Positions 2,363-49,683 are shown, numbered from the stretch's first letter. The stretch is 64,000 nt of DNA from a virus (IMGVR_UViG_3300028898_000252:221946-285945); one strand, 5' to 3'. Notes: generated by a model from the letters alone, not told the origin. Translations and numbers: made by a program.

Positions 2363-3505
2363 TCAATTGCCAGAAAAAAGATAATCATAAATTTCTGACA
2401 AAGAAGCAATTTTATCTAGTTTGGTTGATAGTCCATATTTGTCTTTTGTAATTGATCCGCAATAAACCTCGTACACTGGGTACGCTTCGAAGTTTTCTGT
2501 TGGACTTATGTCCCAAACTTTTACTGTTAAGTCTGAAAACTTTTCTCCAATTACAGAGAGTTCGGCGTAAATTTTTCCTGTTTTTGTTGTTTTTAATATT
2601 GCTTTTCTTAAAATAAACCAAACTTGTTCTGTGATCTTTTTCTTTTCTCCTTCTTCAAGAAAATCGATTTCTCTAATCTCATCAACGCTTATAAGATTCA
2701 TCTCTTTTATTGCTTCAAAATATTTTGGATCAAGAATTAAACTTAAGTCTGCGCTACCTGCAAGTTCGAGCCAATATTTAGTTTTTTCTGCTCTTGACCA
2801 ATCTTCTGTTTTTAATTCTTGTTCTTTTTTTATTAGTTCATCTAAAATTGGTTGAATGTTATTATTTTTCTTCTTTGCTGAAGTTTTCTTTAATAAATCA
2901 AAATTTTCGACAATAACATTAAACGCTTGTTTGTAATTTGATAATTCACCAGTTGGCGAAACAAGATTTAAACTATCGAGGGCCTCTAAGCAAATAAGAT
3001 TTGTTAATCCTTTACGATTAAATTTAGAATGTTTCCAAGAACCATCTTCTTTTATTAATAAGTCTTTTATATCTTTATAAGGTTTATTTCTGTTAATTTC
3101 TTCGAGCGCTGCTTCTCCAATTCCATCAATTGTTGTCAATCCTGGAATTATTGTTTTTTCTTTAAATGGATGCATTTCATATCCCGCACTTGAGAAGTTA
3201 ATATCTGGTTTTGAGAATTTATAGCCAAGTTTTTGTGCCTCTCTCATTGCAACAGCTTTGGGATCTTCTTGACCAACAACTTTACCCTTTTCAAGAGCGG
3301 CATAATCTAAACAAGCTGTTATCCATTCATCTGGATGATATGTTAAAAGATAGCTGCATTGAAAAGTAGCTATTGAATAAGAAATTGCGTGGCTATTAGA
3401 AACAGAAATATCATTAGCATAAAAAGTATGGTCTTCATGATCCACTTCCAAATCATAAGTTTCTTCAATACCATAAAACTCAACAGAATCGATCTCGTCT
3501 AGCAT
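2363..3505 (-). CDS. dnaE: DNA polymerase III alpha, fragment 4 (IntC3 + C-terminal extein)
   Basis: Begins with an intein C-fragment (TYDLEV...FYANDISVSN), then SHAISY (DnaE FNKSH.AY), PDINFS, GLTTIDGIG (HhH) and an OB-fold-like KTTKTGKIYA region. Confidence 0.93.
   Translation of the reverse strand: MLDEIDSVEFYGIEETYDLEVDHEDHTFYANDISVSNSHAISYSIATFQCSYLLTYHPDEWITACLDYAALEKGKVVGQEDPKAVAMREAQKLGYKFSKPDINFSSAGYEMHPFKEKTIIPGLTTIDGIGEAALEEINRNKPYKDIKDLLIKEDGSWKHSKFNRKGLTNLICLEALDSLNLVSPTGELSNYKQAFNVIVENFDLLKKTSAKKKNNNIQPILDELIKKEQELKTEDWSRAEKTKYWLELAGSADLSLILDPKYFEAIKEMNLISVDEIREIDFLEEGEKKKITEQVWFILRKAILKTTKTGKIYAELSVIGEKFSDLTVKVWDISPTENFEAYPVYEVYCGSITKDKYGLSTKLDKIASLSEIYDYLFSGN
3395..3505 (-). 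mobile_element. split intein C-fragment IntC3 (37 aa, acidic)
   Basis: Block F YDLEV, block G ending SN, +1 Ser. Confidence 0.9.
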
Positions 3506-3642
3506 TATTTTTTTTCCTTTACAAAAGCTTCTATTTTTTTGAGAACCGAATCAAAATCAGAATTAATCTCGCTTTCCCAAATTCGTAATATTTTCCATCT
3601 TATAACCTTAAATTCTTGATTACAGATCATACATTTTTGCAT
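3505..3642 (-). pseudogene. 45-aa internally deleted remnant of a Vsr-like homing endonuclease (not in the ORF track)
   Basis: Manual translation MQKCMICNQEFKVIRWKILRIWESEINSDFDSVLKKIEAFVKEKK*; the WKILRIWESEI tail matches YKTLYIWESEL and YKVLTLWESEI in the two intact endonucleases; TAATG overlap with dnaE-4. Confidence 0.7.
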
Positions 3643-3662
3643 TTGACTAAAACCAGATACAA

Positions 3663-3929
3663 TTATTTTACTATAATTTGAAGCTTTTGCTCTATTATTT
3701 CTTTAACAGTTTTCATGCCATTAGGTGTTTGAATTTTATGATCTAACGTACAGACTAATTCTTTACCAGACTTCGTTTTAATTTTAACCAAATTTTTCAC
3801 ACCATTTTCAAACTTATTTTTTACTTTTACAAATCCATTGACACTATTGACTAAATCTTGGTTTGGTATAACCTCTTTAATTTTCTTAAATCCGTTTTGA
3901 GTTTCTACAAGTGAATCTCCATGCAAACA
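3663..3929 (-). mobile_element. split intein N-fragment IntN3 (88 aa, basic)
   Basis: Block A CLHGDSLV, block B CTLDHKI, then a stop codon. Confidence 0.9.
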
Positions 3930-4889
3930 TTGGTTAAACGAATACGCAACCAATTTTTCCATTTTATCAAAAAACTTTGATGCCTTTTGTTCTTCAAGAC
4001 CTGCAAAGGTTTTTGTTTTTTCTACAAACTCAGCTTTTAACTTCTCACGTTCTTTTGCCGCTTTTTCCTTGTTGTTGATTTCTTTCTTTGTAAATGCTTT
4101 ACGAACGGAATCTGTTTCGTCGAGAGGAACTCCACATAAATGATGATAAATTAACTGTAACTGTTCTTGAAAAATTAAGAGTCCGCTTGTTGGTTCTAAA
4201 ACTTCTTTTAAGAATGGATGTTCATATTTAATCAAATCTGGGTTTGCTCTATTCGCTAAAAAGTCTCTATCTACTTTTAATCCTAGTGGGCCTGGGCGGT
4301 GTATTGAAGTCGCAATCGCAATATCTTTGACCGATCTAGGCTTCATCCTTTTCATAAAATCTTGTGTGTTTGGTTTTACGAACTGGAAAATCGAAATAAA
4401 ATTTCCATTCCAAAACACGTTTTCATAAACTTTAAGATCATCCATTGGATTATTGTCTGGTGACAAATGATCATTAAACCATTTTTGAACTTCTTCAAAT
4501 GGTATTTCGGATTCTTGTCTTCCTGTTTGTTTTTTTAATATTTTTCTTACCGTGTTTTCAAAAATACGGAGTGTTCCAAGTGCCAAAAAGTCAAACTTAA
4601 GAAATCCAAAATGTTCTAGCATTCTGAAGTTTACACCTTCTGTCCAAGGTGTTTGGAGCGATCTTTTCTCACCCTTGCCGCCAATAATCAGAGGCATATT
4701 CTGGTTTTCGATCGGCGAGTCAGTGAGGACAACGCCGCCAGCGTGGCGACCGCAATTTGAAATTAATCCAGCTTCGGTCACTATATTAGGCTGATCGTCA
4801 ATAAAAGCACCTGTTGGAATATTGTGGTGAATATCAAAGACAGGTTTCTTACCAATTTTTTGAATTGAGATTATTTTATTCTGTTTCAT
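3663..4889 (-). CDS. dnaE: DNA polymerase III alpha, fragment 3 (IntC2 + extein + IntN3)
   Basis: ...GLISN|CGRHAGGVV, catalytic KFDFL, IFQF, RPGP, IFQEQ, AYSFNQ|CLHGDS... Confidence 0.94.
   Translation of the reverse strand: MKQNKIISIQKIGKKPVFDIHHNIPTGAFIDDQPNIVTEAGLISNCGRHAGGVVLTDSPIENQNMPLIIGGKGEKRSLQTPWTEGVNFRMLEHFGFLKFDFLALGTLRIFENTVRKILKKQTGRQESEIPFEEVQKWFNDHLSPDNNPMDDLKVYENVFWNGNFISIFQFVKPNTQDFMKRMKPRSVKDIAIATSIHRPGPLGLKVDRDFLANRANPDLIKYEHPFLKEVLEPTSGLLIFQEQLQLIYHHLCGVPLDETDSVRKAFTKKEINNKEKAAKEREKLKAEFVEKTKTFAGLEEQKASKFFDKMEKLVAYSFNQCLHGDSLVETQNGFKKIKEVIPNQDLVNSVNGFVKVKNKFENGVKNLVKIKTKSGKELVCTLDHKIQTPNGMKTVKEIIEQKLQIIVK
4755..4889 (-). mobile_element. split intein C-fragment IntC2 (45 aa)
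   Basis: KIISIQKIGKKPVFDI...GLISN, +1 Cys. Confidence 0.88.
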
Positions 4890-5331
4890 CGCCGAATTCT
4901 CGCTCCAACTTGAGACCTATTATTTTTTGATTTTCTATTTCCAAAAGATAAGAATAGAGTTCAATTCCATCATAATTTATACCTAAAGAAAATTGTGGTT
5001 TAAATTTATTTGTTAGTTGGATATTATTAATCCAAATCCAAGTATCGTGTGGGGTAAGAACTTTTTCATCGCTAATTGTATAAATAGTAACAAACATCTC
5101 TTGAATCTCTTTTTCGGATAAGAACTTACATTTGCGTAAAAATTCAATAGACATATCTTGACAACTAATAGCAAATACATCTAATTCTTCAAGCAATATC
5201 AATTTTTCCGAATGTATAATTTTTCTAGTTTTTAACTGATCAACCAAACTATAAAACAATTCAAAAACAGCTTGAGACTTTTCTAAAGTTACTTTTTCAT
5301 AGTCTTCAGAAAAAAATTGCTTTATATCCAT
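4876..5331 (-). CDS. hypothetical protein lying between IntN2 and IntC2
   Basis: 151-aa ORF overlapping both flanking dnaE fragments; no recognisable motif. Confidence 0.6.
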   Translation of the reverse strand: MDIKQFFSEDYEKVTLEKSQAVFELFYSLVDQLKTRKIIHSEKLILLEELDVFAISCQDMSIEFLRKCKFLSEKEIQEMFVTIYTISDEKVLTPHDTWIWINNIQLTNKFKPQFSLGINYDGIELYSYLLEIENQKIIGLKLEREFGDETE

Positions 5332-5600
5332 CCGATTAGAGAATCCTCATTTGTTAAATCTTTTACCTGTTTCCAACCTTTATCGGTTTGAACTAAATGG
5401 TCTTCAGTTAGTTCCAAAACCTTTCCATCTAAAGTTTCAATTTTGTAAACTTCTTTTTCTCCATTTTCGACTTTAAAAAAGTCTGAACTATATTGAATTT
5501 CTCCAACGTTGTCAATAAATGCTATCTTGTCTTGCTCTGTAATTTCAGAGTATTTTTTCCAACCGCTGTTAGTCAACAGTAATGTGTCCTCCGTAAAACA
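5322..5600 (-). mobile_element. split intein N-fragment IntN2 (92 aa, acidic)
   Basis: CFTEDTLLLT..GWK, block B LTEDHLV, GWKQVKDL, then stop. Confidence 0.9.
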
Positions 5601-6725
5601 TGATTTTATTTGTTTGAATAATACTTTTATGCTCGCTTCAAGTTGTGGATAATCTTCCAATAGTTTGTTAAAAGTTGGAGAGTTTTTCTCGGCACTTTCA
5701 TAAGAAAGAAACCAAACACCTCGATCGAAACCATCTTGTTTCTTATCTTCGTCAAGTGTTTCTTTTTCAATTTTTTGAGTAATTGGATTGATTTCTTCAA
5801 ATGGAATTTGGTATAACCTAGCCAAATCTTTAATTAAGGATTTAAGTTGAAGTTGGTTATAGTTTGAAACAGGTAATACGCATTCTTCTCCAAAATGCTC
5901 GATAAGAATTTTAATTGCCTCTTCTCTGTCTGCACAATCGCTATCAATGTCAGGTAAGGAATTGTGGGATAAAACATACACGCCATCTTTTTTATCTGAA
6001 ACCCAAAATGTATGGTCGGCTTCCAATTTAATATCAATTAAAGTTAATGGGACTTTACCTTTTTCGATAGAAAAAATTTCCCAAGTTTTATTATCAGATC
6101 CATTCCCATAAAATCTTGGCTGAGTTTTTGTAAAACTATTATCTACTACTGATTTTATAAATTCAACAGATACATCTTTATATTTTACATCTAAAGGAAT
6201 TTTTTGTATATGTGGACAATTAAATTGTTGAGCTGTAATAAATTTATGATTTGAACTAGCTATCAATTTTCCAACGCTATAAAATGGTCTATGAAAACCT
6301 TTCAAACCAAGACTGGTATGATTTAGCCAATAACCATACGTAATTTCATACCAGTCTGTACGATCTTTTGTTAGATCAATTGCCACGGTAGGAAAATATT
6401 TTCCTGTATGAGTTTTAATTCGGTCTCCGATTTTAATATTTTTTAATTGTTTAGGACCCGTATAGGTCAAGACCCAAGAATCTTCTCCGAGACATGCTTT
6501 CTTTTTACTTAAAAACCTTTCAAACAAAAGTCCATGTTTAATTGGATCAACCTGGGTAATTCCTAAAAGGTAACAAACTAAAGATCCCGCACCAGAATTA
6601 TGCACAGGAAAACCCTCGACGTTATACGAACTTTTATTCTCAACAGAAAGGTCATAAACCTTTCCAGTATATTTTCTATATGTTTTTGATTTTAGTTTCA
6701 TTATGTTTACCAGAGGCCATTCCAT
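5322..6725 (-). CDS. dnaE: DNA polymerase III alpha, fragment 2 (IntC1 + extein + cis mini-intein + extein + IntN2)
   Basis: VHN|SGAGSLVCYLLGIT..DP....LLFERFL; catalytic PDIDSD; QIKS|CFTEDT; the true start may be the ATG at 6701. Confidence 0.94.
   Translation of the reverse strand: MEWPLVNIMKLKSKTYRKYTGKVYDLSVENKSSYNVEGFPVHNSGAGSLVCYLLGITQVDPIKHGLLFERFLSKKKACLGEDSWVLTYTGPKQLKNIKIGDRIKTHTGKYFPTVAIDLTKDRTDWYEITYGYWLNHTSLGLKGFHRPFYSVGKLIASSNHKFITAQQFNCPHIQKIPLDVKYKDVSVEFIKSVVDNSFTKTQPRFYGNGSDNKTWEIFSIEKGKVPLTLIDIKLEADHTFWVSDKKDGVYVLSHNSLPDIDSDCADREEAIKILIEHFGEECVLPVSNYNQLQLKSLIKDLARLYQIPFEEINPITQKIEKETLDEDKKQDGFDRGVWFLSYESAEKNSPTFNKLLEDYPQLEASIKVLFKQIKSCFTEDTLLLTNSGWKKYSEITEQDKIAFIDNVGEIQYSSDFFKVENGEKEVYKIETLDGKVLELTEDHLVQTDKGWKQVKDLTNEDSLIGWI
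5961..6494 (-). mobile_element. contiguous mini-intein (178 aa, no endonuclease) in dnaE fragment 2
   Basis: CLGEDSWV, ASSNHKF, LIDIKLEADHTF...LSHN|S, immediately before SLPDIDSD. Confidence 0.88.
6597..6725 (-). mobile_element. split intein C-fragment IntC1 (35-43 aa, basic)
   Basis: YTGKVYDLSVENKSSYNVEGFPVHN, +1 Ser. Confidence 0.9.
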
Positions 6726-8768: not shown

Positions 8769-9176
8769 TTATTCTTTTTCTCCTTTTAGATTAGTAAAGT
8801 TAGAAATAAAACGAGAAATTTTTTCATCTTTTCCCATTTCTGGAATCAATGGGAATTCTTCTAAGCCATTTTCTGTTAAAAACTTTAACCATTCAAGATC
8901 ATATCTGCCTTTTTCTTTTCCAAGAAAAATCATATTTTTATTTTTTGGAAATACATATTCCAATTTAAAAGAATAGTTGACATCATCTATCCAAAAAACT
9001 TTTAATGGTCTAAATCCTTCTTCGTCATAAACCTGTACTGGCCCACTTACATTATGAACTTTTCCATTTAAACGGATTTCAATCATACCTGTTTCCCATT
9101 TAATTTTTCCCGTATAGTTTTCAGGAGGTTTCTCGTCGTTACATAATATTATTATATTATTCATTTTATTATTCAC
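8769..9176 (-). CDS. hypothetical protein, paralogue of 12637..13272
   Basis: One degenerate HN.SGP repeat and a shared C-terminal GKEKG.Y.LEWLKFLTENG..EFP..PEM block. Confidence 0.65.
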   Translation of the reverse strand: MNNKMNNIIILCNDEKPPENYTGKIKWETGMIEIRLNGKVHNVSGPVQVYDEEGFRPLKVFWIDDVNYSFKLEYVFPKNKNMIFLGKEKGRYDLEWLKFLTENGLEEFPLIPEMGKDEKISRFISNFTNLKGEKE

Positions 9177-9673
9177 TTTATTTCATTCTCTATTATTTTA
9201 GATTGCTTCCAATGCTCAGAAGTTTGAACATGATTTTCTCTTACGAACTTTAAATTAAATCTTCTAAAATCTCTATAAGGAAAGGAATCTGTAGGTCGAA
9301 TAACATAACCTTCACACTCATCTCCATTATTAGAAATGGGCCGATAAAGATCTTTCAAAATTTTTTCGTTATAAATTCCTCTATAAAGAATTTCTGGTGT
9401 TGGTACTTCTAACAAGTCTGCCCATTCTTTAGTTTCATCCCAAGAAAGACAAGTGTTGTATTCATTCCAAACGGAAAGAAGGTAATGGTAGTCTTTTAAA
9501 CTTTTATAATGAATACTATGCTTTGCGAAAACATTTTCGAAACAAAATCTCCAACCCTTTGGTAAATCATTTTTTATTGTGGAATGAAAAGCTTTAATTC
9601 TTGTTCTTGATGGATGATTTTCTAAACTATCTAGCGAACGTGCATGTATGTAATTGCTTATAACCAGAAACAA
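9173..9673 (-). CDS. RNA ligase, C-terminal part of an interrupted gene
   Basis: YIHARSLDS..HPSR, ENVFAKHSIHY, EGYVIR (motif IV), KFVRENHVQT (motif V); no clear start, possibly non-functional. Confidence 0.8.
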   Translation of the reverse strand: MFLVISNYIHARSLDSLENHPSRTRIKAFHSTIKNDLPKGWRFCFENVFAKHSIHYKSLKDYHYLLSVWNEYNTCLSWDETKEWADLLEVPTPEILYRGIYNEKILKDLYRPISNNGDECEGYVIRPTDSFPYRDFRRFNLKFVRENHVQTSEHWKQSKIIENEIK

Positions 9674-9691: not shown

Positions 9692-10714
9692 TTATGTTTT
9701 TTTTGATATGAATTTTATTTTTTTATGTTTAAAATTTTCACATTTTTCATTTTGAGCACTGTACGAGATTTTATTTAATTTAAGTTTTTCTTTTATTAGA
9801 TTTTCAATTTCAATTTCAGATTTATTTTTCAATTCGCTTTCCCAAATATATAATGTTTTATAACCATATTTTTCCGCATTTTGTTTTTTTATTAAATCTT
9901 TATCCCAAATTTCTTTAACTTTAATTAAACCTAATGGATAGTTAATAAAATCATTTTCCTTATAGTAAAGAGGATTAGCATGCCAATAATCTCCATTAAT
10001 TTCTAATACATAATTTACATTAAAAATCTTAATATGAAAATCATAACTTTTTCGGTTTATCCAAAATTGTTCGCTATATAGTATATTTAATTTCTGTAAA
10101 GAATTTTTTATTTTACGTTCAAGCGAAGAATTATAACAAGAAACAATTTTTCTCGAACGTTTTTGAATTATTTTAGTTTTTTGTTCTTCTGTTAAAGAAT
10201 TCCAAGATAAAATACTTTCTGACCATAAATTTTGAAGCCTTTTCTTTTTTTCTTCTTCTGTAGAACTTTTCCATCCGAAATAATTTGCTTTTCCGTATAA
10301 GTTAGGAATAGCTTTTATTCCATATTTCTTTTCTTTAGAAGCTTGTGCTTTAATTCCATAATCTTTTGTTTTCCAAATATTATCTACTCCGTAATTTTTT
10401 AAAGAAGTTTTTCTCTTTTTTTCTTTAACAGAATCAAGACTACTTACATTCGACACACCATATTTTTCTAATAGATTTTCCTTATTTTCTTTTTTAAACG
10501 TATTTGTTTTTCTACTTTCTGAAATTGATCTAATCTTTATATTATTCTGTTTTAATATCAAAACACTTTCTTTAAAACCCAAATTAAACTGTTTCTTTAA
10601 TTTGGGTAAACTGTATTCCAAATCTCTATAACAATTAATGACTTCTTTGACGTTAATATTTTTATTTTTTATGATTTTTTGAACTTTTTCTTCATCTGTT
10701 AATTTTTTGGACAT
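9692..10714 (-). mobile_element. free-standing Vsr/DUF559-like putative homing endonuclease
   Basis: KYGV.N repeats; YDF...EINGDYWHANP...KD..K.....GYKTLYIWESE; sits inside the RNA ligase gene. Confidence 0.82.
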
Positions 10715-10748: not shown

Positions 10749-11297
10749 TTATAACAATTTTTCTAGAACCACAATTTCCCTATTCAAAAAATGATCCATT
10801 ATTGGAGAAGTTCGCTCTTCTTTATCTTTAGCTCCAGGACTCCAAGGAACATGATATGTTCTTGGGTATTTAACATATTCTTCAAATAAATGAATTACAG
10901 GTTTTAAAACTTTCTGTACAGATTCTTCATAAAAAAGCTCTCCTCTTAATCTAATTCCATTTGGTAAAACAAAGTTACCCCATTTGTCAATTTCTTGATC
11001 TTTATAATATTGCTCTGGTAATATTGTCGTTTTGATGCCACAAAGTTGCCTTAATTCATTACAAGAAATTAATGTTTCCTCTGCTTTTATATGACAAGGT
11101 TCGCAAACGGTTGCGCCATTGTCTTCAAAATACCCCTGACTTTCTCCCCAAAGTTTCCTTTCAATAATATGGTGAGCATCTAAATTTGTAGGTTCTTGGC
11201 TTGAATCAAATATTGCTTTTTCGCCGCATGCAACACAAGAAAATTTATCTCGCTTAAAAACTTGGTTTCTGAAGTCATCTCTATTCAAAGATTTCAT
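10749..11297 (-). CDS. HNH domain fused to the N-terminal part of the RNA ligase
   Basis: RDKFSCVACG..LDAHHI..NGATVCEPCH (HNH); KYPRTYHVPWSPG...VVLEKL stops inside ligase motif I (KxDG). Confidence 0.82.
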   Translation of the reverse strand: MKSLNRDDFRNQVFKRDKFSCVACGEKAIFDSSQEPTNLDAHHIIERKLWGESQGYFEDNGATVCEPCHIKAEETLISCNELRQLCGIKTTILPEQYYKDQEIDKWGNFVLPNGIRLRGELFYEESVQKVLKPVIHLFEEYVKYPRTYHVPWSPGAKDKEERTSPIMDHFLNREIVVLEKLL

Positions 11298-13804: not shown

Positions 13805-15514
13805 TTATGACTGGTTTTTTGTGCTGTCAAGCATCAATCTCGCAAGGGTACCCATCACAAAAAGATTGCCGACAGTCCAAACAAGCATTGCAAACCAGCC
13901 GAAAGGTGCCGCATGTAAACCTGATAGGAATGTTCCCATTAAGAAACCAGCGGTGCCAAGTGAAAATCCTCCAACCATAGGTCGAAGATGTTTACGATTA
14001 AAGAATATTGCACTCAAAACAATTGGTAGAAAAGCGCTTCCCAGAGGAAGGAATTGATGAATAAATCCATTTGTAAACATTGTCAAATCACCAGGTGGCC
14101 GCGAAATAATTTCAAGTCCTGGTATTGAGGCTGGCAAAATCATTGGTAAAAAGAACAAACCGACAGAAGCAAAAAGCGCTGGTAACAACCATTTCTTTGT
14201 AGATTCAAGTTTTCCACCTTTCTTTGTAATCCAAGATGTAACGAGTGCAAACATTAGCGCGAGAGAGAACCCGCGATACAAAACTTGTCTTGTTTTAATT
14301 GCCGCGAGCGCAGATTCGGCACTAGCAATACCAGCACCATACAATTGTGGGTTTGAATCGCCGTGTTCGGGAGTTTGAGCCGAATTTCTCAAAATTCCTT
14401 CGACAGCATCCACATTTGTTACGCCTTGAGACATAATCAAGGCTGTAATACCTGCAACGTGTGGTGTTGCCATTGAAGTACCAGACCACGCCGCGAATTG
14501 TTCGCAACCGTCTCTGCCGTGCTCACAAATTGTTTGTTGGAGAATGTTTACTCCAGGTGCCGCAATATCAACTTCTGGGCCGCGCGACGAAAACGAAGCA
14601 ATCATATCACCCGTTCCGATTGCACTGACAGCAAATGCACCCTCTTCATTTGCAGGAGATTCAACATATCTCCCATTGTTTCCCGCGGCACAAATTACCA
14701 CAGTTCCTTTTGATCGAGCATAGCTAATCGCTTCGGCCATTACTCGGTTTCTAGGTCCGCCACCTAATGAAAGGTTGATAACATGCGCTCCAGCGTCCGC
14801 CGCAAAACGAATTCCCTCTGCAACGTCTACTAACGTTCCAGAGCCTCGATAATCAAGAACTTTTACAGGAATAATGGTTGAGCAGTAGGCAATTCCCGCA
14901 ACTCCAACGCCGTTATTGGTTGTTTGAGCAATTGTTCCAGCAACGTGCGATCCGTGCCCTTGGTCGTCATTTGCATGTTCGTCATCGTTAACAAAATCCC
15001 AACCAGCAACACAGTTTGTTCCTTTAAGATCAGAAAGTTGTGAAAACCCATCGTGATTTTCGCACGCAACGCCCGTATCAATTACAGCAACTCGAATTCC
15101 TCGACCGCAGGTGGTATTCCACGCTCGTTCAACACCGACGCGATGCAATCCCCACTGTTGAGAATATTGTGGATCATTTGGCGTGAAAAATGCGTGCATT
15201 TCTTGGTTTTGATCCGCGGCCTGCACGTTTCGATTCGTTTGAAGTTGGCGAACAATTCGTTGTCCAACTTCTCGCGGGGCATTAAAAACATAAATTCTGT
15301 CTTCACCGACCATTTGCGGACTGTTTGCCCGCAAAGTAACTCCATATTGTGAAGCAATATCATTTACTGTGCTTTGAGACACAGAATCGTTGAAATCAAC
15401 AATAAACTCATCTTGTGGCGAGTTTTGACCACCACCAAAAGTTTGGGCTTGAACGCTTACGGAAGCGAGCAAAAGCGACAAACTGCACATTACGAACGCT
15501 GTTTTGTTTTTCAT
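13805..15514 (-). CDS. secreted, membrane-anchored subtilisin-like (S8) serine protease
   Basis: Signal peptide and prodomain; triad VIDTG / HGSHVAG / GTSMATPHVAG; several C-terminal hydrophobic helices; GGAGGT Shine-Dalgarno supports the ATG at 15514 over the GTG at 15529. Confidence 0.93.
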   Translation of the reverse strand: MKNKTAFVMCSLSLLLASVSVQAQTFGGGQNSPQDEFIVDFNDSVSQSTVNDIASQYGVTLRANSPQMVGEDRIYVFNAPREVGQRIVRQLQTNRNVQAADQNQEMHAFFTPNDPQYSQQWGLHRVGVERAWNTTCGRGIRVAVIDTGVACENHDGFSQLSDLKGTNCVAGWDFVNDDEHANDDQGHGSHVAGTIAQTTNNGVGVAGIAYCSTIIPVKVLDYRGSGTLVDVAEGIRFAADAGAHVINLSLGGGPRNRVMAEAISYARSKGTVVICAAGNNGRYVESPANEEGAFAVSAIGTGDMIASFSSRGPEVDIAAPGVNILQQTICEHGRDGCEQFAAWSGTSMATPHVAGITALIMSQGVTNVDAVEGILRNSAQTPEHGDSNPQLYGAGIASAESALAAIKTRQVLYRGFSLALMFALVTSWITKKGGKLESTKKWLLPALFASVGLFFLPMILPASIPGLEIISRPPGDLTMFTNGFIHQFLPLGSAFLPIVLSAIFFNRKHLRPMVGGFSLGTAGFLMGTFLSGLHAAPFGWFAMLVWTVGNLFVMGTLARLMLDSTKNQS

Positions 15515-15531
15515 TTTCCGACCTCCCACAC

Positions 15532-22285: not shown

Positions 22286-22576
22286 TTAAAAACATACTTT
22301 TTCGAATTCATCATCATCTTTTAAGTCAGATGCCGCGACCCAACCACGATTTTTCGTAAGAAATTTATGATCTTTTGTGCAAGAAATTATCGTACCATCA
22401 TCAAATTCGAGTTCTACTATCTCTTCGTCTTGAAGATCGTGATCCCAACATTTTAAAACTTTTTGAATTGAGCCATCGTGGGTATAAACCCATTCTTCTT
22501 TTGAAGAAGAAAACTCTTCAATATTCAATTTTCTTTTTGAAGAAGGAATATGTATTTTTGTTCCTGGTAAGAAACA
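22286..22576 (-). mobile_element. split intein N-fragment IntN1 (96 aa, acidic)
   Basis: CFLPGTKI, block B CTKDHKFLT, RGWVAASDL, then stop. Confidence 0.92.
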
Positions 22577-24136
22577 ACCTCTGCCAGCTCCTAATAACAT
22601 TTTTTTACCAATCAAATTAAGACTTTGGGCACAAGTCAAAAAATACTTTTCAAGTTTTAAATGTTTGATAACGTCAAGTTCTTCAAGAGCGCGGTCAACA
22701 TATTTTGTATCTTCAATTTTCTTTTTTGATTCTAGACCAGACATAACCAAATCGACGAGCTCGTTAAAACTTATTTCATCTTCATTCAAACCATCGGATT
22801 TAAAATCTTTAATTTTATTTTCTGATATTAACTTATTCAGACTTGGAAGTTTTGGAGTTTTATCGAATTCTATTTTCTTGTCAATTGCTTCAAAAGCAAT
22901 TTCATGCGTTCGTTCAATTGCGTCGCAAACTATTTCATGATATTCTTCGGTATAAATTTCAGGATAATCTTTAACACAATAGTTTTTATAAGCGTTCCAC
23001 ATTTGAGTGGCATTCTTTGGATATAACTCATGTTCCAACTCTTCAATTTTTTGTGGAATTGTATTTGGATCAATTTCTTTAAGTTTATCGACAGTCATTC
23101 TTGCGAGAGTTTTATAAATAATTCTTTCTTTCCAGTGTTCGGGATTTGGATAGTGGCAATCTGCGGTCGCAATAACTTTTATTCCAGTTCTTTTTGATAA
23201 TTCAATTAAATGATAATTCAGCAAATGTTGATATGGAACTTTGTTAAACTGTATTTCAAGAAAAAAATTATCTTTATTGCCTCCTAAAACGTATATAAAT
23301 TGCTCGGCAAGTAGTTTTAGTTCAGATTGAATCTGATCGAATTTGTAAGTTTTTAGTTTATCGACATCACTCTTGTAATCTTCTTCATTTAGGTTAAGAT
23401 CTAAAAAATGTTTTATGAGTATTTTATTTGGTTCGCCACCTAAACAAGCGCTGCTTGCTATTATATTACCATTAGCATTTTGCTTTATTAAGTCGAAATC
23501 CATACGTGGAAAAAAATAAAATCCTTCTTTATAAGAAAGAGAAGTTAGTTTAAACAAACTATGTAAACCTGCTGTGTTTTTTGCAAGCAATACTAAATGA
23601 CTTCTTGAACGAAGAGGATCTCTAACTTTGTTGGATTTAGTTTCTTCTTCATTTTCAACAACAGTTGTTTCAACATTTCCTTCAGCGTCTTTCAAAAGCG
23701 CAACTTCTTTATTTAAAAGTTCGTAGTTTTCAACTTCTGCTATAAATTCTGCTTTTCGCTTTTCTTCAATTTCATCAAAAATAATAAACTCATCTGTTGA
23801 TTTTTTTGGTTTTGCTTTATTTGTTTTTTTATTTTGCTTTTCTATTTCTTTTCTTTTTGAAGTTTCTTCTTTTAAAGAAGACCACTCCGATATGGATGGA
23901 ATAAAATAAGACTCAATTCCATAAAGAATTTTGAATTCTTTACCTTCTTTTTTAAGACCCTCGTAGTATTTGTAAGAGTGAGAAAAAGTGTTCATGTTTC
24001 CATGATCTGTAATTGCGTGAGCTCCAAGTTCATTTTTTTGGGCAAAATCAAAATGATCCTGGGGAAGTCCGATGGCATCGCCAATACTTCCGTTTGAATG
24101 TGCATGTAGATTCACATACTTTTTAGGCTCTCTCAT
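22286..24136 (-). CDS. dnaE: DNA polymerase III alpha, fragment 1 (PHP domain + IntN1)
   Basis: NLHAHS..S.GDA, ITDHG, GIE, HLVLLAKN, SACLGGE, TADCHY, EL.VI....YFL, GAGRG|CFLPGT. Confidence 0.95.
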   Translation of the reverse strand: MREPKKYVNLHAHSNGSIGDAIGLPQDHFDFAQKNELGAHAITDHGNMNTFSHSYKYYEGLKKEGKEFKILYGIESYFIPSISEWSSLKEETSKRKEIEKQNKKTNKAKPKKSTDEFIIFDEIEEKRKAEFIAEVENYELLNKEVALLKDAEGNVETTVVENEEETKSNKVRDPLRSRSHLVLLAKNTAGLHSLFKLTSLSYKEGFYFFPRMDFDLIKQNANGNIIASSACLGGEPNKILIKHFLDLNLNEEDYKSDVDKLKTYKFDQIQSELKLLAEQFIYVLGGNKDNFFLEIQFNKVPYQHLLNYHLIELSKRTGIKVIATADCHYPNPEHWKERIIYKTLARMTVDKLKEIDPNTIPQKIEELEHELYPKNATQMWNAYKNYCVKDYPEIYTEEYHEIVCDAIERTHEIAFEAIDKKIEFDKTPKLPSLNKLISENKIKDFKSDGLNEDEISFNELVDLVMSGLESKKKIEDTKYVDRALEELDVIKHLKLEKYFLTCAQSLNLIGKKMLLGAGRGCFLPGTKIHIPSSKRKLNIEEFSSSKEEWVYTHDGSIQKVLKCWDHDLQDEEIVELEFDDGTIISCTKDHKFLTKNRGWVAASDLKDDDEFEKVCF

Positions 24137-30764: not shown

Positions 30765-32651
30765 TTAATCCAGGCTGTGCTCATCAGTTGGAATGCCAGT
30801 TGTTACAGAAATTTCATCTTTCTCATTATCTCTTAGAATAAAGGCACCGTCACACAACATTAAAATATACTCTTTATATTTTGGATCGTTAAAAACTGTA
30901 ACGAAATCTACTTTATAAAAACTTTTATCTCCTTTTACTTCTCCCGTTAAACAATCAATTAATTCAATTTTTTTCCAAGCTCCTGCACCAGAAATACTAG
31001 CACAGATACCATTTATTGCACATTTTTCTCTATTTTCTTTATATTTTGGGGTTTCACAAAAAGCTCTGAGGTCATCAAAAAGAATTTCGTAATCATTTAT
31101 ACCTTTATCATAAAGAATTTGCAGCTCTGCTTGTCTGTAAGGTCTTGCGACTTTATTCTTAACTGTTGCTACTCTAACTTGAATCCCTTTTATAATTTCT
31201 TGTTTTTCGACAAGCTCTTTGATTTTTTGTGGGGTATAAACTCGTAATCTAACTGACGCAGCAAATGGAATTGCCATACCACCAGGAGTAGTAGTATTAT
31301 GATTTATTTGACCTTCAGCTAAGTAACAATTTGTATTTTCTACTGAAAGATCTAGAACATCAATTTTGCCGTCAACTTTAACAGCGTCAGGATGATCTTT
31401 TAATTCTATCCATCCATTGTTAAACCAGACTTTATGATTTGCGGTTCCTTTTAAAGAACCTAGACTATAAAAAGAATCAACAGAAGGTTTTACGACTAGA
31501 TCTGTTAATTTACTCCATACAGTTTTATTTTGAACAATATCGTAACTTTCAATTTCAATATCATCATTCAATGACAACATACCGACTTCATCAAATGATG
31601 AAATACCATACCTTTCAAATAAATCTTTTAAAGTAACTTCTTCTTCTTTGTAAACGTTATTTTCTATATCCATTTTTATAAATCTTTCTATTTTTTCTTG
31701 TATTTCTCTTTTTTTTAGTTTTAGTATTTCAGATTCCCAAAGTGTCAGAACTTTATAGCCATCAGTTACAAGTGTGTCAATTCTTGTTTTATCTTTTTCC
31801 CAAACTTCTTCTTTATCTACCCTTTTTGTATTATCAGGATTTGCGTGCCAATAATCTCCATAACATTCAATTATTAAATTATTTCCTAAAGAAAAATCAG
31901 GATAAAACCATTTATTATCTAACAATAATGGAGATTCATATTCCCAATTAATTTTTAAATCATTTAAAATATTTCCAACAATAAATTCAATTTTAGTCAT
32001 TTTACACGAATTTAGTTCGTATTTTTTTGGGAAATTAAGATCTCTTTGAAGTTTATTCGCATAAAATTTTGACCAATATCTAATTTTTTTTATTCTTTCT
32101 GGTTTATTTGCTGCAATTTTTAATTGTTCTATACCTCCATTAGTTAACCATTTTTTATAAGATTCTACTCTTCTTTTTTTCACTTCAGGATTTTGAGTAG
32201 CCTTATAAACTTTTAATTTATATTCTTCATTTTGATATAATTTTTTCTTAATTTTAGACTGAAGTTCATGGTTATAAGACTTTTTTAGAGTGCTTCTGTA
32301 TTCTTCTGAATTTATAACTTTTTTATGATTAAAAATCATTTTCTCTTCAATTTTTTTAAAATACTCAACACAAAAAGAAATCTCTTCAGTTGAAATTAAT
32401 CTATTGTTTAAAAACCATTTATAGGCATTTTTTTTATTAAAAAAATATTTATAAAACTTGTAAAGTTTTTCAGCTATTTGTAAATTTTCGAAATATAAAC
32501 AAAAATATCTTATAGAAGATGTCGAAATCGGCATTTCCCCATCTTTATAATTTTGCTTACAAATTTTAAACTCTTCTTTTAGTTTAATTTCAAAAATTGG
32601 TTTATTTTTCTTAATTGTAAATTTGAAATTAAAATAATCTTTTTCATCCAT
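30765..32651 (-). CDS. recA: Vsr-like endonuclease + split intein C-fragment + RecA C-terminal extein
   Basis: YPDF...ECYGDYWHANP...GYKVLTLWESE; intein blocks GTANHKV and VLDLSVENTNCY...INHN; then TTTPGG.AIPF.ASVRL and KNKVARPYR. Confidence 0.9.
   Translation of the reverse strand: MDEKDYFNFKFTIKKNKPIFEIKLKEEFKICKQNYKDGEMPISTSSIRYFCLYFENLQIAEKLYKFYKYFFNKKNAYKWFLNNRLISTEEISFCVEYFKKIEEKMIFNHKKVINSEEYRSTLKKSYNHELQSKIKKKLYQNEEYKLKVYKATQNPEVKKRRVESYKKWLTNGGIEQLKIAANKPERIKKIRYWSKFYANKLQRDLNFPKKYELNSCKMTKIEFIVGNILNDLKINWEYESPLLLDNKWFYPDFSLGNNLIIECYGDYWHANPDNTKRVDKEEVWEKDKTRIDTLVTDGYKVLTLWESEILKLKKREIQEKIERFIKMDIENNVYKEEEVTLKDLFERYGISSFDEVGMLSLNDDIEIESYDIVQNKTVWSKLTDLVVKPSVDSFYSLGSLKGTANHKVWFNNGWIELKDHPDAVKVDGKIDVLDLSVENTNCYLAEGQINHNTTTPGGMAIPFAASVRLRVYTPQKIKELVEKQEIIKGIQVRVATVKNKVARPYRQAELQILYDKGINDYEILFDDLRAFCETPKYKENREKCAINGICASISGAGAWKKIELIDCLTGEVKGDKSFYKVDFVTVFNDPKYKEYILMLCDGAFILRDNEKDEISVTTGIPTDEHSLD
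31296..31673 (-). mobile_element. long split intein C-fragment (about 126 aa) of RecA
   Basis: Starts near MDIENN, contains blocks B, F and G, ends HN, +1 Thr; lacks block A. Confidence 0.85.
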
Positions 32652-32697
32652 TTGACATTTTTGTTCTTATTTTAATTTTTGTGTCTGGTGAAACACA
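32644..32697 (-). mobile_element. atypically short split intein N-fragment (17 aa)
   Basis: CVSPDTKIKIRTKMSNG*, block A only. Confidence 0.85.
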
Positions 32698-33429
32698 AGC
32701 ATCTCCATGTAAGATACCAATTTTTTGTCTTGTCTGATTAACAAGTAAGAGTGTGACTCTTTTATCTTTCAAGATCTGATTAACTTTCATAATACCTTTG
32801 CTAAGAGCTCTAGCTTTGATTCCAATTTGTTGTTGTTCGTAGGTTGCCTCTAACTCGGTTCTAGAAACTGAAGCCGCTACTGAGTCCCACACGATGATTA
32901 CTGGCAGATTGTTATCTTGATTTTTAACAGAGGTGATTATTTGTTCTATTAATTGAAATGTATCTTCGATACATTGTTCTTGGACGAAAATTAATTCGTC
33001 GGTATTGACTCCAAGCATCGCAAGATTCTCCACAGATGTTGCATTTTCAGAGTCAATATAAACTGCTATTGCCCCATTTTTTTGAGCCTGCGCGCATATT
33101 GTTTGCGCAAGAGTTGATTTCCCAGAAGAAGGTTCTCCAAAAACTTCAATTATTCTTCCTTCTGGAATTCCTCCATTTCTTTTATTTGAAATAATATAGT
33201 CTAATTTTATTGCTGATGTTGAGAACCAATTTTTTACATTAGTTGGTGCATCGTCATCTGTTTTAAGATTATAAGCAATCTTTTCTCCGCGGGTTTTGTT
33301 TATTTCTTTAGTGATTCCAGAAATAATTGCCATTCTTTTGGAAGAGGCTTGCTCTTGAGGCTCTAGTAAATTTGTGGTTTTGGGAGTAAGCGATACTTCT
33401 TGTTTGTTGCCTTTTTTAATGTTTGCCAT
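32644..33429 (-). CDS. recA: RecA/UvsX recombinase N-terminal part + 17-aa intein N-fragment
   Basis: GGIPEGRIIEVFGEPSSGKST, YIDSE, WDSVAA, NQTRQKIGILHGDA|CVSPDTKIKIR. Confidence 0.93.
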   Translation of the reverse strand: MANIKKGNKQEVSLTPKTTNLLEPQEQASSKRMAIISGITKEINKTRGEKIAYNLKTDDDAPTNVKNWFSTSAIKLDYIISNKRNGGIPEGRIIEVFGEPSSGKSTLAQTICAQAQKNGAIAVYIDSENATSVENLAMLGVNTDELIFVQEQCIEDTFQLIEQIITSVKNQDNNLPVIIVWDSVAASVSRTELEATYEQQQIGIKARALSKGIMKVNQILKDKRVTLLLVNQTRQKIGILHGDACVSPDTKIKIRTKMSNG

Positions 33430-47205: not shown

Positions 47206-49683
47206 TTATAATAATTCGCTTGCGATAGTCGCAAGTTTACTTCGTTCACCTTTTACAAGAGAGATGTGACCAGCTATTTCTTCACCTTTAAATTTTTCGA
47301 TTGCGATAACAAGTCCATTTGTAAATTTATTTAAATAAGTGCTATCAATTTGGTTGTGATCTCCAAGAAGAACAATTTTTGTTCCTTCCCCAACTCTTGT
47401 TAAAATTGTTTTCATTTCGTGCAAACTTAAGTTTTGACTTTCATCAACAAGAAATATACATTTAGGAATTGAACGACCCCTAACGAATGTCGTTGCTTCA
47501 ACTTGAATTATGCCGCGATCAAACAAGTCTTGCATAGCAAAAGAATGCTTTAGGTTTTCACTTTTCTTTGATTTGGTTGCACCTTTAGAAATTGCATCAT
47601 CAATGTTTTCATTTAAAAGGAATTCAAGATTATCTTTAAATGGAGCAATCCAAGGGTCCATTTTTTCACCCAAAGTCCCAGGAAGAGCTCCTATATCTTT
47701 TCCAAGAGGTTGAATATTTCTAGTAATTAATATTTTATTATATTTTCTTTTTGTTAAAGTTAGTTCAAGAGCTGCGGCGAGAGAAATTAATGTATTGTGA
47801 GTAACAATGTAGTCGTCAGTAACATATAGGTGATCTTTCGCATCAACACTTATACACTGCGCGAATTTTTTTCCAATCAATTCAACTTTTTCAATTGTTC
47901 TTACTGGTTGATATTTCGTTCTCTCTTTGAATTTAGTACTTTTTCTACTAAGTTTAAAAGGTATAATACCTGTTGGCAAAGATATACGAACAGCGAAAGA
48001 TGGTCTTCCATTTTTCTTTTCTTTTTTATGAGGATATTTTGTCTGTTTATTACAAATAACAGCTTTTCCACCAAAAGACCAAACAAGTTCTTGAATATCA
48101 GAAGCAAGTTTATGCGAGGTTGTATAGAAAATTGTTGTTCGGCCTTCTTTGTCTACATATCCATCTGTATCCATAAGTCCTTGCAATACTTTTAATCGAA
48201 TTTCCGAACTGTTATACTTATAAATTTCAGGAATAAATTTGTCCCATGAATGTTTATCAATTAAACCTAATTCTTTTAATTGACTTTGAACAAAATTTAC
48301 TCCTTTTTCTTTTAAAATTTCTTGTACTTCATTTATAATTTCTGTATCGGTGCTTAAAAGATTTATTGTACCATTTGTAAAACATCTATCTCCAAGTAAT
48401 ACTCCTAAAACATAAGGATCTAATTGAACTGATTTTTTAGGAAAATCAATATTGTTAACCATCGGTATTTCATATATTTTTCTATTGTGAATAGTTTTTA
48501 AACCGTCTTTAATTTCTTTTAAAGAAACAACTTTTGATATTCTTTTTCCTTTTGGTTTTCTATTATCTTCTACTTTCCATAAGTGATCTTCGCAACATTC
48601 TGTGCTAGAACCGTCTGAAAATGTAACTCGATATATGTCTTTAATACCTTGAGGATAAACACCCGTTACTTTAGTTTTTTTGCCATTCTTTCCAATCACA
48701 AAATCTCCTTTTTTAATTTGGCCCATCGTAGTCCAGCCTAAAGGGGTCAAAATTTTAGCATCGAGAGGCTGAGCTTTGCCTGCCCCCGATCTAGAACTCA
48801 CAGTAACCAAACTAATAGAATCATCCATAAGAAGGTCAAGTAAAAATGCCTGTTCCATATTTTTACTTTTTATATTCCAGGTACCAGCTTGAAATGGAAC
48901 AAAATGAAGTGGTTTTCCAGGTTTAAGAAATCTCCCAGCTATTTTAACATCAGACTCATCAGATTCAAAAACGATAAATTGATTTGGATACAAACCTTTT
49001 TCTTCTTCTTCGGTTAAAATAATATTATTTTTATCTTGATAAAATTTATCCATCTCTTCTTTTGAGATTTTGAAAGTTTTAATACCAGTATAAAACTCAG
49101 ATTCTGATGCAGGCATATTAAGAATTTTGCTTATATCTTTTGAAAGTTTTTTATAATCTTCACATTCAACACCGACAGAAATGGCCTTAATTCTTAAAAG
49201 CAAATCCCGAGTAACAAGAATAACTTTTTCGCTTGAATACTTTTGTTTATATTCTAGACAAAATTGAACGATTTTATTATCGCCCTTGGAATAATCCAGT
49301 TCTGGAATTGAAATAATAACATTTGACTCTAAATCTTTTTGATTTAAAATCTTTAATTTTCCAAGTTTTTTTCCAAGTGATATTCCTGTTTTAACATCAT
49401 TTTTATTTTCTTTGACAAATTCAATTAACTGTCTTGAAATTTCTCTGGCATTTTTACCGACATCATCTTGTTTATCTTTAAACCTATCTAATTCTTCAAC
49501 AACAATCAAAGGCAGAACAATATCATTATTTTGAAATGATCTTAAACATTCTGCATCGGATAATAAAACATTTGTATCTAAAATAAAAGTTTTTTTTGAT
49601 TCGCTACTTGAACTTTTTTTAGATGGTTTTTTCATTTTTATTTTCACTTTTGTTCCTTTTTTGGAGTTATTTTTTTGGTACAA
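47206..49683 (-). CDS. phoH: PIN domain-PhoH ATPase with intein
   Basis: ILDTNVLL, EELD, DN.I, VTRD (PIN); GAGK|T split by intein; GALPG, RGRSI, VDESQN, GD..QID. Confidence 0.92.
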   Translation of the reverse strand: MYQKNNSKKGTKVKIKMKKPSKKSSSSESKKTFILDTNVLLSDAECLRSFQNNDIVLPLIVVEELDRFKDKQDDVGKNAREISRQLIEFVKENKNDVKTGISLGKKLGKLKILNQKDLESNVIISIPELDYSKGDNKIVQFCLEYKQKYSSEKVILVTRDLLLRIKAISVGVECEDYKKLSKDISKILNMPASESEFYTGIKTFKISKEEMDKFYQDKNNIILTEEEEKGLYPNQFIVFESDESDVKIAGRFLKPGKPLHFVPFQAGTWNIKSKNMEQAFLLDLLMDDSISLVTVSSRSGAGKAQPLDAKILTPLGWTTMGQIKKGDFVIGKNGKKTKVTGVYPQGIKDIYRVTFSDGSSTECCEDHLWKVEDNRKPKGKRISKVVSLKEIKDGLKTIHNRKIYEIPMVNNIDFPKKSVQLDPYVLGVLLGDRCFTNGTINLLSTDTEIINEVQEILKEKGVNFVQSQLKELGLIDKHSWDKFIPEIYKYNSSEIRLKVLQGLMDTDGYVDKEGRTTIFYTTSHKLASDIQELVWSFGGKAVICNKQTKYPHKKEKKNGRPSFAVRISLPTGIIPFKLSRKSTKFKERTKYQPVRTIEKVELIGKKFAQCISVDAKDHLYVTDDYIVTHNTLISLAAALELTLTKRKYNKILITRNIQPLGKDIGALPGTLGEKMDPWIAPFKDNLEFLLNENIDDAISKGATKSKKSENLKHSFAMQDLFDRGIIQVEATTFVRGRSIPKCIFLVDESQNLSLHEMKTILTRVGEGTKIVLLGDHNQIDSTYLNKFTNGLVIAIEKFKGEEIAGHISLVKGERSKLATIASELL
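47794..48774 (-). mobile_element. class 3 intein (327 aa) with LAGLIDADG domain
   Basis: Starts Ala (AQPLDAKI); WCT triplet in EDHLW / AQCISV / VTHN; LGVLLGDR and LQGLMDTDG motifs; +1 Thr. Confidence 0.88.

Follow-up and report, generated by a model that had tools for sequence, protein, structure and literature searches.

The third split intein of the DNA polymerase III alpha subunit (DnaE) of a jumbo phage, formed by the halves IntN3 and IntC3, is probably a gp41-1-type intein of mobile origin, whose charge polarity was inherited and whose orthogonality towards the other inteins of the gene is a by-product. The pair is predicted to be a functional, naturally split class-1 intein, and its family would occupy one DnaE site, after ..Y-x-F-N-K/Q and before S-H-A...

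The window (the whole 64,000-nt stretch of DNA analysed) comes from a complete virus record of 390,884 bp, a jumbo phage with direct terminal repeats and ~30 % G+C. Among the GenBank-derived phage records compared none was close, every match being below 31 % identity. At least 12 inteins are present in the whole 391-kb genome, four of them in DnaE; those outside DnaE are located in PhoH (window 47206-49683), a RecA-like gene and ORFs at ~140, 145, 185, 207, 351 and 387 kb of the genome. DnaE is encoded by four minus-strand ORFs, whose pieces are joined or interrupted by three split inteins and one cis mini-intein, and its exteins sum to ~1,292 aa. The pieces, inteins and intervening ORFs are the following.

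22286-24136 (-): DnaE piece A, 616 aa; PHP domain and start of the catalytic domain, then IntN1 (Pfam PHP, E 3.3e-24; Intein_splicing)
22289-22576 (-): IntN1, 96 aa, net charge -8; C-terminal part of piece A
5322-6725 (-): DnaE piece B, 467 aa; IntC1, a 34-aa extein, the mini-intein, a 120-aa extein with PDIDSD, IntN2
6597-6725 (-): IntC1, 43 aa; likely start at the Met at 6701
5961-6494 (-): contiguous (cis) mini-intein, 178 aa; within piece B, just before PDIDSD
5325-5600 (-): IntN2, 92 aa; end of piece B
4876-5331 (-): ORF of 151 aa between IntN2 and IntC2; homologues in the related loci L003 (139 aa) and L005 (151 aa)
3663-4889 (-): DnaE piece C, 408 aa; IntC2, a 275-aa extein, IntN3
4755-4889 (-): IntC2, 45 aa; start of piece C
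3666-3929 (-): IntN3, 88 aa; fused to the piece C extein, stop codon 3663-3665
3505-3642 (-): ORF of 45 aa between IntN3 and IntC3; its stop overlaps the IntC3 start (TAATG)
2363-3505 (-): DnaE piece D, 380 aa; IntC3 followed by the C-terminal extein of 343 aa, which has the HhH domain (Pfam HHH_6, E 2.2e-11)
3395-3505 (-): IntC3, 37 aa; ends ..VSN, with Ser+1 next

Pieces A and B lie 15.5 kb apart. The last part of the Pol III alpha catalytic domain ('NTPase' in Pfam) and the fingers (DNA_pol3_finger, E 2.9e-30) lie within the 275-aa extein of piece C. The 151-aa ORF matched no family and is not an endonuclease. An earlier note on this DNA had placed a split intein pair at 3395-3929, and the translations locate IntN3 and IntC3 at the two ends of that interval; its passage on the pairs leaves out the cis mini-intein at 5961-6494.

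Neither half of pair 3 matched an intein family in Pfam; the identity of the pair rests on a solved-structure match, on homologues and on the predicted complex. The best solved structure for IntN3 is the gp41-1 intein (6QAZ; E 5.5e-6, ~31 % identity over 74 aligned residues), and no DnaE intein is among its solved-structure matches up to E = 10. The best solved matches of IntN1 are NrdJ-1 and cyanobacterial DnaE inteins, and that of IntN2 is the Spl DnaX mini-intein. Mutual identity between IntN1, IntN2 and IntN3 is 22-39 %. Judged by these comparisons, inteins 1, 2 and 3 are separate lineages rather than diverged copies of one.

All class-1 (HINT) splicing residues are present in pair 3, namely Cys1, block B T61-L-D-H64, S36-N37 and Ser+1. 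Cys1, His64, Ser36 and Asn37 are invariant in the homologue alignments A1 (IntN, 14 homologues) and A2, and the penultimate Ser of IntC3 (..VSN) is kept in 26 of 26 family members. Relative to L005, a 92 %-related locus, dN/dS is 0.09 for IntN3 and 0.075 for IntC3, with similar values in the exteins; both halves are thus under purifying selection. The host gene is presumably essential for replication. Contiguous alleles of 125-137 aa align end to end with IntN3 plus IntC3. Excision restores the host motif: the window has ..YSFNQ and SHAISYS.. on either side of the intein, against an uninterrupted ..YSFNM-SHAISYS.. in L003.

The predicted IntN3 + IntC3 complex scored 0.94, against 0.00 for the best of three controls, and passed a mark that 58 of 80 solved complexes and 2 of 110 mismatched pairs also attain, although, similar complexes having already been solved, such a pass may show likeness rather than prove binding. 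Contact agreement between runs was at least 98 %, with a partner pLDDT of at least 92. Residues 47-52 of IntN3 (LVKIKT) are predicted to lie against residues 5-11 of IntC3 (IDSVEFY). We infer that the Lys-rich strand of IntN3 (VKNLVKIKTKSGK) would attract the acidic first strand of IntC3 (LDEIDSVEF), that the two strands would zip together antiparallel, and that the HINT fold would then form. Cys1, T-x-x-H, the terminal Asn and Ser+1 would carry out trans-splicing, giving ..YSFNQ-SHAISYS.. within the ~1,292-aa DnaE.

Net charges and junction residues of the three pairs, with a slash at the splice junction, are listed below.

Pair 1: IntN1 -8, IntC1 +3, junction HN/S
Pair 2: IntN2 -10, IntC2 +1, junction SN/C
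Pair 3: IntN3 +7, IntC3 -12, junction SN/S

Charges counted by hand in the earlier note held on recount from the translations; IntC1 is +3 where about +4 had been claimed, and becomes +4 if started at the internal Met, the start used by the relatives L003 and L005. IntN3 contains 16 K, 0 R, 3 D and 6 E (net +7), and IntC3 contains 6 D and 6 E with no K or R (net -12). The polarity of pair 3 is indeed opposite to that of pairs 1 and 2, as had been claimed, and the pair-specific C-terminal chemistry was confirmed likewise. The presence of an extra loop in IntC2 (IPTGAFIDDQPN) was also confirmed, and both L003 and L005 conserve it.

These charges were set against all windows of equal length in those ORFs of the phage that are at least 150 aa long. 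The -12 of IntC3 over 37 aa ranks among the lowest 0.1 % of own-proteome windows, whereas the +7 of IntN3 over 88 aa is only within the top 5 %; IntN1 and IntN2 are in the lowest 7 % and 3 %, respectively. Whole-fragment charges of IntC1 and IntC2 are unremarkable against the proteome, these fragments being basic over their first ~18 residues only (+5 and +4). Local strand charges in pair 3 are +4 for IntN3 and -7 for IntC3, which is the gp41-1-type polarity of a basic IntN strand and an acidic IntC strand.

A charge product, the local net charge of the late IntN strand multiplied by that of the first IntC strand, was calculated for each combination of halves; negative values attract and positive values repel.

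IntN1: with IntC1 -35, with IntC2 -28, with IntC3 +49
IntN2: with IntC1 -10, with IntC2 -8, with IntC3 +14
IntN3: with IntC1 +20, with IntC2 +16, with IntC3 -28

Every non-cognate combination involving pair 3 is repulsive (+14 to +49), and the cognate pair 3 product is -28. The products of IntN1 with IntC2 and of IntN2 with IntC1 are as attractive as the cognate ones; with a polarity common to both, pairs 1 and 2 cannot be separated by charge. An electrostatic contribution that sets pair 3 apart from pairs 1 and 2 is plausible but unproven. The reversed polarity would disfavour pairing of pair 3 with inteins 1 and 2 as a by-product of ancestry, and the orthogonality of the three pairs would come mainly from their being unrelated inteins. 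The orthogonality reading of the earlier note thus stands in part: pair 3 is reversed and, on simple electrostatics, repels non-cognate halves, but the evolutionary divergence attached to this reading does not stand. A separate idea, that middle fragments avoid ends of opposite charge and so avoid self-association, was rejected, as the ends of piece B are a basic IntC1 and an acidic IntN2; the homologue P0010, with an acidic IntC and a basic IntN, also counters it.

According to that divergence reading, selection against cross-splicing within the genome drove the three pairs apart and the charge reversal of pair 3 is adaptive. The repulsive products involving pair 3 speak for it, and IntN2 and IntN3, the two most similar IntNs (39 %), have opposite strand charges (KIETLDG versus KIKTKSG). 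However, pairs 1 and 2 have the same polarity, and the reading is very improbable. Searching 1.84 billion representative proteins with IntN3 yielded 736 matches; of the best 150, 46 are located at the DnaE site of pair 3 (following ..Y-x-F-N-K and preceding S-H..). Among the matches listed, the N-terminal parts of the contiguous same-site mini-inteins (125-137 aa) range from -4 to +8 (median +2, n=15) and their C-terminal parts from -2 to -10 (median -5, n=12). One contiguous allele, P0030, is +8/-7, and its C-terminal end is nearly identical to IntC3. The 31 split IntC homologues at this site have net charges of 0 to -14, with a median of -8 when IntC3 is included (n=32).

Single-split genes add to this. 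P0001 is a 997-aa ORF ending in an IntN that is 67 % identical to IntN3, with a charge of +3; this one ORF holds the PHP domain, the catalytic domain and the fingers, and its DnaE therefore has no other split. The partner, P0160, is encoded on the same contig (17,266 bp), and its IntC has a charge of -9. The earlier note had itself held that the same charge pattern in contiguous or single-split alleles would refute divergence of co-resident pairs, and the pattern was found in both, in the acidic C-terminal parts of 12 contiguous alleles and in the +3/-9 of P0001/P0160. Divergence within the genome is also at odds with the separate lineages of the three inteins, with the close relative L003, in which site 3 is empty and pair 2 is unchanged, with P0010, a single polypeptide in which an acidic IntC from a different site (-12) and a basic IntN of site 3 occur together, both halves being of the reversed-polarity type, and with L007.

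L007 has a single-split DnaE and, at the same site, an IntN of -9 and an IntC with a basic first strand, a flipped local polarity; local polarity can thus flip without a co-resident split in the gene. L008 resembles L007, with an acidic IntN strand and a basic first IntC strand. A mirrored whole-fragment charge in this acidic-IntN subclade was considered and rejected, since the IntCs of L001, L007 and L008 are all -1 overall; the basic part of IntC is the first strand only, in L007 and L008. Along the IntN tree, charge sign is clustered: it changes 5 times against 11.9 times in shuffles, with 0 of 500 shuffles as low, on a tree that is poorly resolved (strong support on 4 of 45 inner branches).

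Another account would have incoming split inteins retained more readily if their polarity is unlike that of the residents, so that mixed sets accumulate in multi-split genes. Both the window and P0008 combine a pair-2-type IntC, with its basic first strand, with a basic site-3 IntN, and the repulsion argument applies here as well. Such sorting is nevertheless improbable, if somewhat less so than divergence: pairs 1 and 2 are found together despite a common polarity, both halves on P0010 are of the reversed-polarity type, single-split genes show both polarities, and orthogonality is usual between unrelated split inteins even without a filter of this kind (PMC7090010).

Split alleles are more charged than contiguous ones (absolute IntN charge, p = 4e-5; IntC charge, p = 0.003), the sequences compared being not independent of one another. 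Selection therefore acted on charge after splitting, in part perhaps for specificity, in line with the published proposal that stronger charge networks are favoured once an intein is split (10.1101/546465). In principle, the contiguous alleles might derive from split ones by re-fusion. At this DnaE site, polarity is inherited, changeable, stronger in split alleles and not tied to co-resident splits. The basic IntN and acidic IntC of pair 3 would accordingly come from the intein lineage, the polarity being already present in contiguous alleles and strengthened in split ones. It is conceivable, though doubtful, that the family at this site is 'charge-swappable', with both polarities at one site and a labile polarity that measurably aids pairing fidelity in multi-split genes. 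If so, natural variants would supply matched orthogonal pairs on one scaffold.

The charge might also serve mainly for solubility, or for keeping the free halves disordered until they meet, with little role in partner choice. The stronger charge of split alleles, of either sign, agrees with this. Likewise, NpuDnaE with swapped zipper strands (CS-NpuDnaE) still splices with the wild-type partner and showed no orthogonality, and its authors suggest a solubility aid (10.1101/546465). An earlier whole-fragment charge swap of NpuDnaE is cited in the same preprint (its ref. 23). However, engineering the same strands in split NpuDnaB (Oth-NpuDnaB) did yield orthogonality (10.1101/546465), and the predicted interface of pair 3 sets the Lys strand directly on the acidic strand. 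A main role in solubility is possible but has the smaller chance of being right; it is compatible with inherited polarity and by-product orthogonality and does not exclude them.

Under the preferred reading of an inherited, mobile intein, pair 3 would have arrived in the phage as a 'fractured gene' element in which a free-standing homing endonuclease of the Vsr-like type lay between IntN and IntC; this endonuclease would since have decayed to the 45-aa ORF. The ..ILRIWESEI.. segment of this ORF weakly matches the C-terminal ..LRFWE.. motif of a 282-aa endonuclease in L001 (E 0.009), and the ORF also weakly matches the window's own 340-aa endonuclease (E 0.001). [quoted passage not shown] The same slot is filled by intact endonuclease genes (282-323 aa) in L001, L007 and the contig bearing P0153, and one relative's contig has an intact DUF559-like gene of 286 aa lying between the two halves. 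In L005 no ORF was found between the pair 3 halves. The 340-aa Vsr-like endonuclease gene of the window lies at 9692-10714 (-), flanked by ORFs at 9173-9673 and 10749-11297.

Three fractured DnaE loci were reported by Dassa et al. 2009 (PMC2677866). As in the present gene, split inteins break DnaE at non-cyanobacterial sites in these loci, one of which also bears part of a second intein. A same-strand Vsr/DUF559-like endonuclease is located between the published halves, where pair 3 has the short putative remnant. In contrast to those loci, three split inteins and one cis intein are present here in a single gene, and one pair of halves is separated by the 15.5 kb between pieces A and B.

When viral contigs were scanned with DnaE piece D, one locus was returned: L003, a syntenic contig of 185 kb that is 74 % identical in this piece. 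IntC1 and pair 2 are present in L003 as in the window (IntN2 -7, IntC2 +1), and pieces C and D form one 671-aa protein with site 3 empty. With pair 2 kept and site 3 empty, intein 3 appears to be a separately gained or lost mobile element. The cis mini-intein is one contiguous stretch in the window; in L003 (2300-3600) it is split, with a 311-aa endonuclease gene between its two parts, and L005 (3901-4746) lacks it. These three states among close relatives are a natural series for how inteins become split. L003 also has an additional contiguous 140-aa intein at 3451-4638, inside the catalytic motif between PDID and SD, which the window does not have. Intein content thus differs site by site among close relatives, which fits the expectation for mobile elements.

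Several features are shared between pair 3 and gp41-1: a basic IntN and an acidic IntC, a zipper (predicted in pair 3) of a late IntN strand and the first IntC strand, Ser at +1, and an origin in phages, where the setting is a fractured gene for gp41-1 and putatively so for pair 3. With 88 and 37 aa, the halves of gp41-1 have the same lengths as those of pair 3. The two differ in host protein, which is the gp41 helicase for gp41-1 and DnaE for pair 3, and in the penultimate residue, which is His in gp41-1 and Ser in pair 3. Positive N-halves and negative C-halves have been described for gp41-1 and gp41-8 (Dassa et al. 2009, PMC2677866), and the charge zipper of gp41-1 is opposite to that of NpuDnaE (Beyer et al. 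2019, 10.1101/546465; crystal structure 6QAZ).

The Npu/Ssp DnaE split intein has in common with pair 3 the DnaE host, a canonical split with a short IntC and, as predicted for pair 3, association driven by electrostatics. However, its IntN is acidic and its IntC basic, the polarity being reversed in pair 3, and it is of another intein lineage, no kin of IntN3 among DnaE inteins having been found in the solved structures up to E = 10. The cyanobacterial DnaE intein site is presumably a few residues upstream of site 3 (..AEY/CFNKSH..).

Split inteins are widely used tools for protein ligation, for which sets that do not cross-react are useful. The three pairs and the cis intein must work together in one presumably essential protein, which makes them reasonable candidates for testing. 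Reversed polarity, charge zippers, orthogonality by charge swap and large orthogonal libraries are already published. In the set tested by Pinto et al., 15 of 16 split inteins were mutually orthogonal (PMC7090010). With such engineered and collected sets (CS-NpuDnaE, Oth-NpuDnaB and the 15-member library of PMC7090010) the present set shares the idea that polarity can lower cross-reaction and that orthogonal sets allow ligation of multiple fragments. Those sets are bench-tested, whereas the present one is a natural candidate set within one gene.

Other split or interrupted genes were observed. The RecA-like gene of the window (30765-33429, (-)) appears to be split very early in its intein: the first ORF ends ..GDA-CVSPDTKIKIRTKMSNG followed by a stop, and the second, overlapping it by 8 bp, opens with a Vsr-like endonuclease domain in frame with the rest of the intein (..GQINHN/T) and the RecA C-terminus. 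Either a frameshift or an atypical split of an intein that has kept its endonuclease could account for this arrangement. In L001 (55-5847), DnaE is broken into pieces of 655 and 394 aa that are separated by four genes; the first piece ends ..LINGIAK at a stop, the second starts MVNVKKIPFDDQ, and no intein halves were found at this break. The L001 DnaE looks like a non-spliced split polymerase. Additionally, a gene for a subtilisin-like protease of 574 aa, located at 13805-15529 (-) in the window, has 41 % G+C in a genome of ~30 %, which points to a recent foreign origin.
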